The notes under the pieces are model-generated. The model saw only the letters and a program-made list of their open reading frames with translations, was not told where the DNA came from and searched no databases. Of a stretch of 39,015 nt of DNA, positions 1-22,313 are shown piece by piece. Positions within the stretch are counted from its first letter, which is position 1; each line of letters starts with the position of its first letter. The DNA lies in IMG/VR virus record IMGVR_UViG_2740892269_000012. The stretch is one strand, 5' to 3'. Both the position numbers and the translations under genes were made by a program. Source of the DNA: a virus (lineage: Duplodnaviria; Heunggongvirae; Uroviricota; Caudoviricetes).

Positions 1-1236
1 CTACGATAACCGCGCATTCAACATGGCTACCTGTTCGTCGTTCATGTCATCAATCCACATACCGTAAATTTCATACACCATCTGCGCAGTTTCATGCCCC
101 ATCTGGCTGGCTATAAACGCCGGGTTCGCTCCTGCCGTCAACAGCCAGCAGGCAAAAGTATGCCGCGTATGGTACGGATTACGGCGGCGAATACCAGCAC
201 GTTTTACTGCTGCATTCCATCTCGCACCCAAACTGCTTACCGAGTAATAAGGTTTCTGTTTTCCGTTACACACTCTGGGCATGAAAACAAAATGCAGTTT
301 TTGCTTTTCGGTTCTGCCGTACTCCCGATGATAAAAAGTGATTTCGCTTTTGCGATGATGCCCGGTCAGTTTGTATTGCTCCTTCAGTGCTTCAAGAGCA
401 GGCTGCAGTAGTGTTACCGTCCGGATCCCCGCATTTGTTTTTGGGGGACCGAACATATCCAGTATCGTCAGGTTTCTTCTGACATTCACAACTCCCTTCT
501 CGAAATCCACATCCTCCCACGCCAGAGCAGCCAGTTCCCCGTGACGAAGCCCGGAGTATACGGCAAATTTCCACAAGTTCTGGCTCTGTCCTTTTTCACT
601 TTCCATTAATGCATTGAATTCTGTTTTAGATAACGGGTCAGGCTTTATTCTGTTTCTCTGTAATTTCTTTACTCCTTCAAATGGTTTGGTTGATATAAAT
701 CCCGACTGATACGCAAAACGTAACAACGAACAGAGCAGGGCGATATAGTTATCAACTGTGCGCACGGTTCTTCCTTTTTTGTTGGATCTTGGATTATCCA
801 GGTAAAGCGTTTCTCCATGCAGCAGTTCATTCCGGTAGTTTAAGATATCGCTATAACGAATATGCGATATCGGAGTACTCTCACAAATTATTATCCTGAG
901 TGTTTTTAATTGTGATTTCGTTTTCTTCATTGTGTTTGTTGTTAACTCTGTTTCTTTAATTTTTGTCCAGATATCACAAAGCTCCCCGAACGTTTTTATG
1001 ACCCTCGTTGTCACCATTTTTGCCCCAGTGCTGGACTGGGGAAAACGTCTTAAATACTCAAACTCACCGGAATTGATTTCATGAACTATCAACGCTCTTA
1101 AATTCCCGGCTTTTTTAATGTTACTGTTAGTAACCTCCCAGCCTTTCAATGTTTCCCGACATCGTTTTCCTCGAAACATGAACCAGATGCGAATGTATTT
1201 ACCTCGAATCTCGACACCTGTTGGTAATTTAGACAT
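1..1236 (-). CDS. intR: Tyrosine-family site-specific integrase (Rac IntR-like), 411 aa; window begins at its stop codon
   Basis: Full-length 411-aa ORF; translation (MSKLPTGVEIRGKYIRIWFMFRGKRCRETLKGWE... RHTFACW...) matches my recollection of K-12 Rac IntR nearly residue for residue; ATG at 1236 overlaps the upstream xis stop in typical xis-int arrangement. Confidence 0.93.
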   Translation of the reverse strand: MSKLPTGVEIRGKYIRIWFMFRGKRCRETLKGWEVTNSNIKKAGNLRALIVHEINSGEFEYLRRFPQSSTGAKMVTTRVIKTFGELCDIWTKIKETELTTNTMKKTKSQLKTLRIIICESTPISHIRYSDILNYRNELLHGETLYLDNPRSNKKGRTVRTVDNYIALLCSLLRFAYQSGFISTKPFEGVKKLQRNRIKPDPLSKTEFNALMESEKGQSQNLWKFAVYSGLRHGELAALAWEDVDFEKGVVNVRRNLTILDMFGPPKTNAGIRTVTLLQPALEALKEQYKLTGHHRKSEITFYHREYGRTEKQKLHFVFMPRVCNGKQKPYYSVSSLGARWNAAVKRAGIRRRNPYHTRHTFACWLLTAGANPAFIASQMGHETAQMVYEIYGMWIDDMNDEQVAMLNARLS

Positions 1237-1237
1237 A

Positions 1238-1453
1238 TCATGAGTCTTTGATAAACTGATTTATCTTTGGATAGTTATACCAGATAATCCCTCGCTTACT
1301 GTCTGGCTTCCCTAAAGGAGATACTCGTTTGAAGTGGAAGCCTTCCACCCAACAGTTCTGGCGGTATGCTTCAATTTGTCTGGCCCCCAGACCAGTGCGA
1401 AGCATCAGGCCGTATTCAACCATCCACTCTTCATTAAAGATTACTTGTGCCAT
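1238..1453 (-). CDS. ydaQ: Excisionase-like protein (YdaQ/Xis), 71 aa
   Basis: ORF 1238..1477; internal ATG at 1453 ([21 protein letters not shown]...) is preceded by a GAGGTG Shine-Dalgarno and gives the 71-aa length I recall for Rac YdaQ; sits immediately upstream of int. Confidence 0.8.
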
Positions 1454-1552: not shown

Positions 1553-1741
1553 TCACGAGGACTGAAGTTTCTCGCAATTAAAATTTATCAGTTTTACTTT
1601 CTGCTCTCTGGAAACGCCTGCTTCTTTTTTACCTGAGAGCATTTTTTCGCATTCTGATTTCGTTAGTTTAGATTTTGAATATCTTGTCCAGTTAGTAGGA
1701 GTGCCACCTTCCTTTTCAATAGTGGCGGTAATTTTATACAT
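1553..1741 (-). CDS. ydaC: Small hypothetical protein at the Rac ydaC position, about 62 aa
   Basis: ORF 1553..1813; ATG at 1741 (MYKITATIEKEGG...) has a GGAGGTG SD 5 nt upstream and overlaps the ralR stop; position between ydaQ and ralR as in Rac. Confidence 0.55.
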   Translation of the reverse strand: MYKITATIEKEGGTPTNWTRYSKSKLTKSECEKMLSGKKEAGVSREQKVKLINFNCEKLQSS

Positions 1742-1928
1742 GAACACCTCCATTATTATTTCCAGTGGTTCGTTTATTTCATCGTTCGAGTGCTTCTTTT
1801 TCACTTCCACCATAACCGGTTCGGGATTCGCATCCGTTACACTTCGCTCGGTAATATCCTGAAATGGCTTTCACCGTTACTGATGGACAACCACAAAATG
1901 GACATGGTTTAACATTGTCATATCTCAT
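1734..1928 (-). pseudogene. ralR: ralR (type I toxin, DNase) reading frame interrupted by an in-frame TGA at codon 50
   Basis: Minus-strand translation from ATG 1928 gives MRYDNVKPCPFCGCPSVTVKAISGYYRAKCNGCESRTGYGGSEKEALER, then TGA (complement of 1779-1781), then in-frame NKRTTGNNNGGVHV and TAA at 1734-1736; total 64 codons matches RalR as I recall it, with TGG (Trp) expected at the stop position. Confidence 0.6.
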
Positions 1929-1983: not shown

Positions 1984-2793
1984 TTATTCCTCTGAATTAT
2001 CGATTACACTGTATTCCCCGGTTAATACAGAGGAATCTGCAGGATCGATTGTCAGTGGTTCCTTTTCATCCATTGATACTGCACGCTGGATCTCAATTGA
2101 TACGGGCAGATATTTGAACAGGCGACGAATAGCCGTTTTCTTTGCCATTTCTTCCCAGTGAGTTACCCACGGCCCGTTATTACCAGCTTTACTCTGGCTG
2201 CGCACCAGCTCAATCTGTTTGCGCGTCATAACTTCAAACTGAGTACCTCCGTCTTTCAGTCTTGCGACAGCATAGACGTGGGTAACAGGGGCATCTTCGT
2301 TTTCTCCTGGGCGGTGTATTAACTTTTCATCAAGGCCAAATTCGAAATTAAACTCGTCACCTTCACGGACAACACGGGCTGACAGGCTGGCGATTTGACC
2401 TGAACGGCGAGCCAGATCAATCATGCCGCGATAGCCAATGATTAGCTGAACGTTTTTTTTACCGCTCTTTTCGTTTTTATTACCAAAAGGCAGTAAATAT
2501 GCATGACCGAGGGCGCTACCGGGCTCAAGTCCGAGCTGTGAACACTGTACGATTGCACTGACAAAACTCATAGTGTCACAGTTTCCTAACGCCGGAACTT
2601 TACGAATTTCTGTGGTGGCGATACGGATCATACGTTCAGCCGTCATATGGCGTGGAAGAGCTGCTGCCAGTTGCTCTTTCATTGATGGCTGGTTAATAAA
2701 ACTAATCACGTCGTTATTTTTAATTGCTGCTGGTGCACGGTTTCCCTGAGTTTTTTGCAGATCGGCTTTTGCGATTGGTGGTTGCTTAGTCAT
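1984..2793 (-). CDS. recT: RecT single-strand annealing recombinase, 269 aa
   Basis: ORF 1984..2850; ATG at 2793 gives [16 protein letters not shown]..., the RecT N-terminus, and 269 aa; overlaps the recE 3' end by 8 nt. Confidence 0.93.
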
Positions 2794-17592: not shown

Positions 17593-18122
17593 GCTGGTTT
17601 ATTGTATGCCAAATGATTATTAAAAAGGTTGTGTTAATAACAAGATCCGAAATAATATGCCTGCATATTTTTATCTTGCTTATATTCTGCATATTGTGCA
17701 TAGCAGGCTCATCCCTGCAATCAAAACTGTATGATGAGTATTTTTTGTTTTCCTTTTTTCCAGTCATCTGATGATGACCTGCTTCTTTTTAATCCGGATC
17801 GACATCAGTTTTTTAAGATAATTCCTGCGAGTTATATGCATAAATGCCACAAACTCCGCATTTTATGTGGTTGGGAGTTGCCGGGCGCGCAGTGAGTTTG
17901 CTAAGAAAACTCCTGCATGGTGAATCCCCCTGTGCGGTGGGGTGATACCATTAACCTTTTCTGTCGCCGACAGGTATCACGAACATTTTGTTCACCGGGA
18001 GGCACCCGGCACCATGCACTTCAATAGATTCTCTCCACATTATGGATATTCTTTCAGAATATCCCACGCAGACTTTGTGTAAATGTTAACAAATGTGCGT
18101 TTTATTTGATCTGATTCGCTGT

Positions 18123-20718: not shown

Positions 20719-22176
20719 ATGAATACATCTCATGTAAGAGTTGTTACTCATATGTGTGGGTTCCTGGTTTGGCTCTATAGTCTTTCAATGTTGCCACCAA
20801 TGGTTGTAGCATTGTTTTATAAAGAAAAAAGCCTGTTCGTTTTCTTTATAACTTTCGTTATATTTTTTTGCATTGGTGGCGGAGCGTGGTATACAACTAA
20901 GAAATCTGGCATTCAATTACGTACCCGTGATGGGTTTATTATAATTGTAATGTTTTGGATTTTGTTTTCTGTTATTAGTGCATTCCCTTTATGGATTGAC
21001 TCAGAACTTAATTTAACGTTCATTGATGCTCTGTTTGAAGGGGTTTCTGGAATAACAACAACAGGAGCAACTGTAATTGATGATGTTAGTTCATTACCTC
21101 GGGCATATTTGTACTATCGGTCACAGTTAAATTTTATAGGTGGTTTAGGAGTTATTGTTCTGGCGGTTGCAGTATTGCCATTATTGGGTATTGGTGGTGC
21201 AAAGCTTTATCAGTCAGAAATGCCGGGGCCATTTAAGGATGACAAACTCACTCCCCGCCTGGCCGATACGTCACGGACACTGTGGATAACTTATTCTTTA
21301 TTAGGTATTGCTTGTATTGTCTGTTATAGACTTGCAGGAATGCCTTTGTTTGATGCTATTTGTCACGGGATTTCCACAGTTTCGCTTGGTGGTTTCTCAA
21401 CTCATAGCGAGAGTATCGGATATTTTAATAACTATTTGGTTGAGCTGGTGGCTGGTTCTTTTTCCCTGCTATCGGCTTTCAACTTCACTCTTTGGTATAT
21501 TGTTATTAGCAGAAAAACGATAAAACCTTTAATCAGAGATATTGAACTTCGTTTCTTTCTGTTAATAGCCTTAGGGGTGATCATTGTTACCTCTTTCCAG
21601 GTCTGGCATATAGGTATGTATGACTTGCATGGAAGTTTTATTCATTCGTTTTTTCTTGCCAGCTCCATGCTCACTGATAATGGTTTAGCTACGCAGGATT
21701 ATGCAAACTGGCCCACGCACACGATAGTGTTTTTGCTGTTGTCAAGTTTCTTTGGGGGATGTATAGGTTCAACCTGTGGTGGAATTAAGTCACTTCGATT
21801 TCTTATACTTTTCAAACAAAGCAAACACGAGATAAATCAGCTTTCTCATCCCAGAGCGTTGTTGAGTGTAAATGTAGGAGGGAAGATAGTTACAGATCGT
21901 GTAATGAGGTCTGTATGGAGTTTCTTTTTTCTTTATACTCTCTTCACGGTGTTTTTTATACTGGTGTTAAATGGTATGGGATATGATTTTCTTACATCAT
22001 TTGCAACAGTGGCTGCATGTATTAATAATATGGGATTAGGTTTTGGGGCTACTGCATCGTCATTCGGAGTGCTTAATGACATTGCAAAATATTTAATGTG
22101 CATAGCTATGATTCTTGGTCGCCTTGAAATTTATCCTGTTATTATATTGTTTTCAGGTTTTTTTTGGCGCTCCTAA
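20719..22176 (+). CDS. trkG: TrkG potassium uptake transporter (TrkH paralogue), 485 aa
   Basis: ATG at 20719 (MNTSHVRVVTHMCGFLVWLYSLSMLPP...) gives 485 aa as in K-12 TrkG; polytopic membrane protein; AT-rich gene. Confidence 0.9.
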   Translation: MNTSHVRVVTHMCGFLVWLYSLSMLPPMVVALFYKEKSLFVFFITFVIFFCIGGGAWYTTKKSGIQLRTRDGFIIIVMFWILFSVISAFPLWIDSELNLTFIDALFEGVSGITTTGATVIDDVSSLPRAYLYYRSQLNFIGGLGVIVLAVAVLPLLGIGGAKLYQSEMPGPFKDDKLTPRLADTSRTLWITYSLLGIACIVCYRLAGMPLFDAICHGISTVSLGGFSTHSESIGYFNNYLVELVAGSFSLLSAFNFTLWYIVISRKTIKPLIRDIELRFFLLIALGVIIVTSFQVWHIGMYDLHGSFIHSFFLASSMLTDNGLATQDYANWPTHTIVFLLLSSFFGGCIGSTCGGIKSLRFLILFKQSKHEINQLSHPRALLSVNVGGKIVTDRVMRSVWSFFFLYTLFTVFFILVLNGMGYDFLTSFATVAACINNMGLGFGATASSFGVLNDIAKYLMCIAMILGRLEIYPVIILFSGFFWRS

Positions 22177-22313
22177 TATATGGCTGATTTATAATTGTGA
22201 GTTTAATATTATGTTGACTCACTCATTGATCCAATACCTAACTTTACCAGCAACACCTCCGCCCCCAGTAGCACTGGCTGCTGGGGTGCGTTTTATTCAT
22301 AAAGCAAGGCTGT

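Follow-up and report, generated by a model that had tools for sequence, protein, structure and literature searches.

Prophage context of ralR

The window, that is, the whole 39,015-nt stretch of DNA that was analysed, contains a Rac-like prophage in which the gene order recT-ralR-ydaC-xisR-intR at ttcA is the same as around the RalR/RalA pair of the Rac prophage in E. coli K-12 (PMC4041452). Over its first 25 kb, the window matches the calf isolate E. coli NCTC10444 with 100% identity, and integration at ttcA is taken from the RefSeq annotation of that genome. The positions of the features discussed below are collected in Table 1.

Compared with the 23-kb Rac remnant of K-12, the prophage in the window is far more complete: it keeps morphogenesis genes, with a lysis region, both terminase subunits, and portal, capsid and tail genes. 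The gene trkG is embedded in it, and its tolA fragment and truncated ynaK are flagged as pseudogenes. In the late region, between a DUF1133 gene and the tolA-like fragment, there is a match to the sRNA STnc100. In addition, GenBank records of 37.8-38.7 kb that are described as complete phage genomes share the left arm of the prophage.

Table 1. Positions of the features in the window (strand given where the annotation provides it)
Feature	Position	Strand	Remarks
intR	1-1236		
xisR	1238-1453		
ydaC/rcbA homologue	1553..1741	-	DUF1187, 62 aa; Pfam PF06688, E = 8e-39; RefSeq annotation
RalA antitoxin sRNA	1557..1735	+	179 nt; Rfam RF02694, 225.1 bits (gathering score 170), model 1-179 of 179
Former ralR codons after the stop	1734..1778	-	14 codons (NKRTTGNNNGGVHV) and the old TAA stop; same as K-12
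Truncated ralR CDS	1779..1928	-	49 codons and TGA stop; RefSeq WP_001443846.1
Premature stop W50*	1779..1781	-	TGA, codon 50; context CGA TGA AAT (CGA-UGA-A)
RalA-pairing site in ralR	1791..1806	-	16 nt, codons 41-46, intact; partner segment in RalA 1619-1634
recT	1984-2793		
recE	2786-5386		
Genes beyond recE			racC, ydaE, kilR, sieB, immunity and replication, lysis, trkG, terminase, portal, capsid and tail genes
sRNA STnc100	17885-18071	+	Rfam RF02076, 86.6 bits (gathering score 47)
trkG	20720-22177		

Between recT and ralR lies an inverted repeat (1937-1995, core GGCGGTG / CACCGCC), which is followed a few bases downstream on the minus strand by a T-run that is one T shorter than that of K-12. 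The repeat looks like a putative terminator or attenuator just upstream of the ralR start; a simple terminator scan made no terminator call at 1937-1995.

The ralR frame and its codon 50

The ralR frame (complement of 1734-1928) translates as MRYDNVKPCPFCGCPSVTVKAISGYYRAKCNGCESRTGYGGSEKEALER*NKRTTGNNNGGVHV*, and the longest open version of this frame in the open-reading-frame list is 1779-1940. The original prediction was that the frame is interrupted by an in-frame TGA at codon 50, where Trp is expected, and that the codons past the stop still encode the RalR C-terminus; the translation and the alignment with other strains confirm both points. K-12 ralR is annotated by RefSeq as 195 nt, or 64 aa, and the reference protein therefore does not itself end at this position: codon 65 is the stop in K-12, while the stop comes at codon 50 here and residues 50-64 are lost. 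On the upstream side, all of residues 1-49 match K-12 RalR, and on the downstream side the 14 codons show no change relative to K-12, nor do they in any of 10 further carriers of the TGA.

Codons 49-50 read CGA TGA in the window, AGA TGG in K-12 MG1655, CGA TGG in O145:H28 RM12581, and AGG TGG in strain H9, an isolate from a Panamanian river. The comparison with alleles of other strains, which had been proposed as a check, thus gives TGG at codon 50 in K-12, O145 and H9, and also in strain 042. Relative to the intact CGA-TGG allele, the window differs by the single G-to-A change that had been postulated (on the plus strand, a C-to-T change at 1779); relative to K-12, it has two substitutions within codons 49-50.

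The identity of the gene as ralR (also called lar) of the RalR/RalA type I pair, likewise part of the prediction, is supported by profile matches. The 49-aa product scores 126.9 bits against the NCBIfam RalR equivalog NF007260 (cut-off 113; profile positions 1-49 of 64), 39 bits against Pfam PF14354 Lar_restr_allev (cut-off 28.6; model positions 2-52 of 58), and 40.3 bits against TIGR03655 (cut-off 39.6); when TGG is restored, the protein reaches 53.5 bits against PF14354 and covers model positions 2-58. The NF007260 score, the 49 of 49 identical residues and the synteny between recT and ydaC establish orthology to K-12 ralR. In RefSeq, the 150-nt CDS is WP_001443846.1, with the name 'type I toxin-antitoxin system endodeoxyribonuclease toxin RalR', and has no pseudogene flag, because the score of the 49-aa product is still above the curated cut-off of the NCBIfam equivalog. 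When all six frames of the window were scanned for the motif, no further Lar-type gene able to stand in for ralR was found.

Frequency and spread of the TGA allele

A 61-mer centred on the TGA is found exactly in 310 of the about 1,560 complete E. coli genomes that bear the ralR stretch, and codon 50 is polymorphic among complete genomes (310 TGA versus about 1,250 intact). The corresponding CGA-TGG 61-mer is exact in 123 of 1,619 complete genomes with the stretch; the remaining genomes are mostly K-12-like, with two mismatches to the window 61-mer. Carriers of the TGA include O157:H7 strains, Shiga-toxin producers of O26, O103 and O111, and dog, human and calf isolates, while at least two O157:H7 strains have a different Rac mosaic in which ralR is intact. 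In the index of an assembly collection, 9,944 blocks contain the exact 49-aa protein, which occurs on at least 1,000 contigs. In all 10 places listed, of the 9,944 blocks, its neighbours are racC-recE-recT-ralR-DUF1187-xisR-intR-ttcA. Furthermore, a 401-nt stretch identical to that of the window occurs in the GenBank phage records vB_EcoS-666R9, -673R7 and -613R10, and in two of the three the 150-nt CDS carries the annotation RalR.

The TGA allele is an already catalogued, widespread natural polymorphism of a known prophage toxin gene. A lesion private to this genome is rejected by the same data, since the allele is the widespread and already annotated WP_001443846.1, which travels with the prophage. 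A sequencing or assembly error as the source of the stop can be dismissed almost entirely, and so can a UGA that encodes selenocysteine. All that speaks for an error is the prior chance of one wrong base call, against which stand the identical sequence in 310 independent complete genomes and a product found in thousands of assembly blocks, so that we reject it; against selenocysteine stands the ancestral residue, which is Trp and neither Cys nor Sec. Literature searches (ralR in O157; Lar restriction alleviation) returned no title or abstract on a truncated allele, and the two papers that were term-searched contain no mention of one.

The carriers are very similar to each other around ralR. 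Six of them, which are very different strains, show 0-5 differing sites in the 3 kb around the gene, the exception being an O26 strain with a replaced, recombinant intR. Ten further carriers differ at 0-12 sites in the 4.7-kb prophage arm from racC to xisR, whereas the adjoining 2.2-kb chromosomal ttcA-dbpA flank of the same ten differs at up to 72 sites; one pair has 1 difference in the prophage arm versus 56 in the chromosomal flank. That carriers with divergent chromosomes share one young haplotype speaks for one origin of the TGA allele, followed by horizontal spread with the Rac-like prophage, and the haplotype would have moved between backgrounds most simply as part of the prophage. Recurrent independent mutation is unsupported, as every carrier examined has the one haplotype. 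Among 5,426 complete genomes, none has the exact 401-nt haplotype with TGG in place of TGA, which would be the direct progenitor; the best matches to this query are the TGA carriers themselves, with one mismatch.

The prophage arm is not uniform throughout. Among TGA carriers, intR falls into at least three sequence types with 9-48 differing sites next to a nearly identical recET-ralR arm, which suggests recombination breakpoints between xisR and intR. Intact CGA-TGG genomes (e.g. O157:H7 7.1_Anguil and 042) mostly have another recombination module, with a RecT-family protein of 350-362 aa and a longer RecE, and their RalA is not identical to that of K-12. Since two recombination modules occur beside the same genes, the ralR/ydaC/xisR block is common to two distinct Rac mosaics.

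What the premature stop removes

When 1.84 billion cluster representatives were searched with a profile, 3,968 relatives were found at E <= 0.001, from which 76 single-domain representatives of 50%-identity clusters, 30-77% identical to RalR, were aligned for the analysis of conservation. Ten positions are invariant in all 76: C9, P10, F11, C12, G13, C30, C33, W50, N51 and R53. Three of these ten (W50, N51 and R53) are at or past the stop, and they are conserved as strictly as the four Cys ligands. The residue expected at codon 50 in the original prediction is therefore that of the whole sample (76/76), and TGG is the ancestral state, because homologues from Salmonella and Citrobacter have Trp here, as does every family representative examined.

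In an AlphaFold2 model based on the 76-homologue alignment (mean pLDDT 77), residues 17-30 form a beta-hairpin zinc ribbon and residues 43-52 the sole helix. The pLDDT is about 86 up to residue 50, averages 59 for residues 51-60, and is below 50 for residues 61-64. According to this model, the stop removes the last turn of the helix together with the conserved motif, and much of what lies beyond the motif is predicted to be a low-confidence tail. For comparison with solved structures, a search by sequence found no RalR-like structure (best E = 0.46), and a search by fold gave no match with E <= 0.001 and returned generic zinc ribbons only.

With respect to the Lar family (PF14354, TIGR03655), the 49-aa fragment keeps the common plan of a CPFCG...C..C zinc ribbon followed by one helix, with C9, C12, C30 and C33 all present, and it exceeds the family cut-offs. 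It differs in that the W-N-x-R motif at the helix end, which every sampled member has, falls after the stop. Guo et al. (2014, PMC4041452) mutagenized K-12 RalR by error-prone PCR and found that changes at residues 14, 37, 39, 49, 51 and 52 lower its toxicity; in the same work, purified RalR mutated at K52 did not cleave DNA, and rewriting residues 43-46 abolished toxicity. The window lacks the complete 64-aa toxin frame, and residues 51 and 52 are among those that it has lost. Because W50, N51 and R53 and the toxicity residues 51 and 52 are removed, the best reading is that the 49-aa product is most likely a toxin with lost or strongly reduced function, and toxin activity can hardly be expected of a protein without residues 50-64.

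Some observations do not fit this reading well. The fragment keeps the zinc ribbon and most of the helix and is still above the curated Pfam and NCBIfam cut-offs, and the high frequency of the allele with its intact neighbours would also fit retained function. One way to accommodate them is a functional, 'detoxified' Lar protein of 49 aa that has lost DNase toxicity but has kept a useful activity, for example restriction alleviation or modification enhancement through binding of a partner. Such a protein would explain why the allele spread and is frequent; it would have the four-Cys zinc ribbon and helix residues 43-49, and it would be recognized, as the fragment is, by PF14354 (39 versus 28.6 bits) and by TIGR03655 (40.3 versus 39.6 bits). 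However, the W-N-x-R motif that is removed is invariant (76/76) and is thus likely to be needed for any function of the family, not for toxicity alone. Moreover, no sampled homologue ends before W-N-x-R (none of the 76 representatives ends less than 5 residues after the Trp), and hitch-hiking on a mobile prophage explains the frequency equally well. We find a detoxified Lar protein hard to credit for these reasons and retain loss or strong reduction of function.

RalA and the downstream gene

The original prediction offered loss of the antitoxin sRNA as an example of what might have led to decay of the toxin, and proposed to look for ralA nearby. In the known pair, RalA acts with Hfq to neutralize a toxin that cleaves DNA and kills or arrests cells. 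RalA is indeed found, encoded on the opposite strand downstream of ralR, but the suggested loss is not what the window contains: RalA is full length and identical to K-12 RalA at 179 of 179 positions, its fold ends in a terminal hairpin and U-run, and the pairing site in ralR is intact, as in K-12. A direct repeat (1619-1632 / 1791-1804) underlies the pairing, and RalA 1619-1634 and ralR 1791-1806 can form 11 contiguous Watson-Crick pairs, in accordance with the 16-nt complementarity with 11 contiguous perfect pairs reported by Guo et al. (2014, PMC4041452). Since the premature stop is 9 nt (three codons) downstream of the pairing site, control of the truncated ralR mRNA by RalA should be unaffected.

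The exact RalA sequence is also present in all 10 further carriers and in five carrier loci. Note that this conservation is no argument for retained function, because decay cannot yet be expected in so young a haplotype and because RalA is antisense to the whole ydaC CDS; the ydaC homologue is antisense to RalA along RalA's whole length.

Where ralR is intact, its stop codon and the start of ydaC overlap (ATGTATAA), an arrangement that allows translational coupling. In the TGA allele, the premature stop is 37 nt before the ydaC ATG. Little effect on ydaC is expected from this, because ydaC has its own Shine-Dalgarno sequence, GGAGGTG, which sits within the post-stop stretch of ralR (1734-1778).

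The end of ydaC is itself variable. In the window it reads TCG TGA, with the stop at 1553-1555 on the minus strand, and the 62-aa product has the length of the Pfam DUF1187 family; O145 and strain H9 are the same. K-12 reads TCG AGA at this point, and the frame continues for seven codons to give the 69-aa RcbA. K-12 therefore has the unusual ydaC allele, as the 62-aa ending is found in O145 and H9 and corresponds to the family length. The variable base is 2 nt outside the 5' end of RalA.

Possible readthrough and recoding at the UGA

The prediction had left the choice between a product that is truncated and one that depends on readthrough, and in this form it holds. In the latter case, ralR would be a leaky toxin gene in which Trp-tRNA(Trp) occasionally decodes the UGA and 64-aa RalR is made at a few per cent of normal output. 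The gene would then be attenuated, not dead, and its output would possibly depend on stress or temperature and vary from cell to cell. Reporter assays in E. coli K-12 put UGA readthrough with Trp insertion at about 2% (37 C) and about 4% (25 C); such readthrough arises because Trp-tRNA(Trp) competes with RF2, and its level changes with cAMP and from one cell to the next (PMC10570021). In ralR, the inserted Trp would be the ancestral residue and readthrough would regenerate the exact wild-type protein, so that the allele may be leaky and not null. The base 3' of the stop is A, and UGA-A is said to be a leaky context, as reportedly described by Engelberg-Kulka in 1981. In addition, none of the carriers examined shows a change in the post-stop codons, in RalA or in the pairing site.

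However, intact post-stop codons are uninformative about selection because the haplotype is so young (0-12 differences in 4.7 kb), and these codons double as the ribosome-binding region of ydaC. There is no structure downstream of the stop that might stimulate recoding: the 66 nt around and after the UGA have a minimum free energy of -3.8 kcal/mol (z = +1.44), and 195 of 200 shuffled sequences fold at least as well. The fold of this stretch shows no SECIS-type hairpin 3' of the UGA either, by which both selenocysteine and a structured recoding signal are rejected. The readthrough figures, moreover, derive from K-12, whose RF2 is unusually weak; natural isolates terminate better at UGA. Finally, RalR from its chromosomal copy is already restrained by RalA. 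On balance, we consider a leaky toxin unlikely.

A stronger version of this idea would make the UGA a selected attenuator, such that authentic RalR appears only in the minority of cells or conditions with high tRNA(Trp)/RF2 readthrough. If true, the gate would open, for instance, in the cold, at high cAMP or under translational stress; what was a constitutive toxin-antitoxin pair would have become a stochastic DNase switch controlled by physiology, and this switch would have helped the Rac-like prophage to spread through EHEC and other lineages. We regard this as highly improbable.

Interpretation

We therefore come back to termination at codon 50. In our view, it is very probable that the window carries a naturally segregating nonsense allele, W50* (TGG -> TGA), of the Rac-prophage ralR, the product of which is most likely non-toxic while the rest of the module is unchanged. 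The ribosome would stop after residue 49 and release a zinc-ribbon fragment, and this fragment, without the last turn of its only helix and without W-N-x-R, would most likely be non-toxic. The parts that are left as they were are the RalA sRNA, the 16-nt pairing site, and ydaC with its own ribosome-binding site. The allele would have arisen once, on a K-12-like recET-ralR haplotype, and then spread with a Rac-like prophage into many E. coli lineages. What the analysis shows directly is the sequence itself, how the allele is distributed, the common haplotype of its carriers, an intact RalA and the removal of invariant residues; we infer the loss of toxicity and of DNase activity, as well as the neutrality or mild benefit of that loss.

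In most respects, this is an ordinary case of a point mutation that knocks out a prophage toxin gene. It can be compared with the inactive hok homologues of K-12, in which the toxin ORF is likewise inactivated while the antisense or sRNA partner and the surroundings persist; Guo et al. make this point generally for Hok-like loci (PMC4041452). The decayed hok-type pseudogenes are old and multiply damaged, whereas ralR has one nonsense change, which is young and still segregates in the species.

The allele matters because what is known about RalR/RalA, namely DNase toxicity, fosfomycin tolerance and possible roles in biofilm cell death, comes from K-12. In about one in five of the complete E. 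coli genomes that bear ralR, the copy stops before residues needed for activity. As the annotation still says 'toxin RalR' with no pseudogene flag, inventories of toxin-antitoxin systems in pathogenic E. coli overcount functional RalR, and in EHEC, as in many other strains, an entry named RalR should not be taken for a functional toxin. In the strains that carry the allele, RalA would effectively be an orphan sRNA antisense to ydaC.

Other lesions of the module

Two database proteins, P0012 (...GGSEKEAGVSREQ...) and P0015 (...SEKEGGTPTNW...), are RalR-YdaC fusions, and both look like the result of deletions between short direct repeats. The junction of P0012 lies exactly at the 16-nt RalA/ralR repeat (1619-1634, 1791-1806), corresponding to a 172-bp deletion, and a deletion of this type would take out most of RalA along with the end of ralR. 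Such fusions are rare, independent ways of destroying the module.
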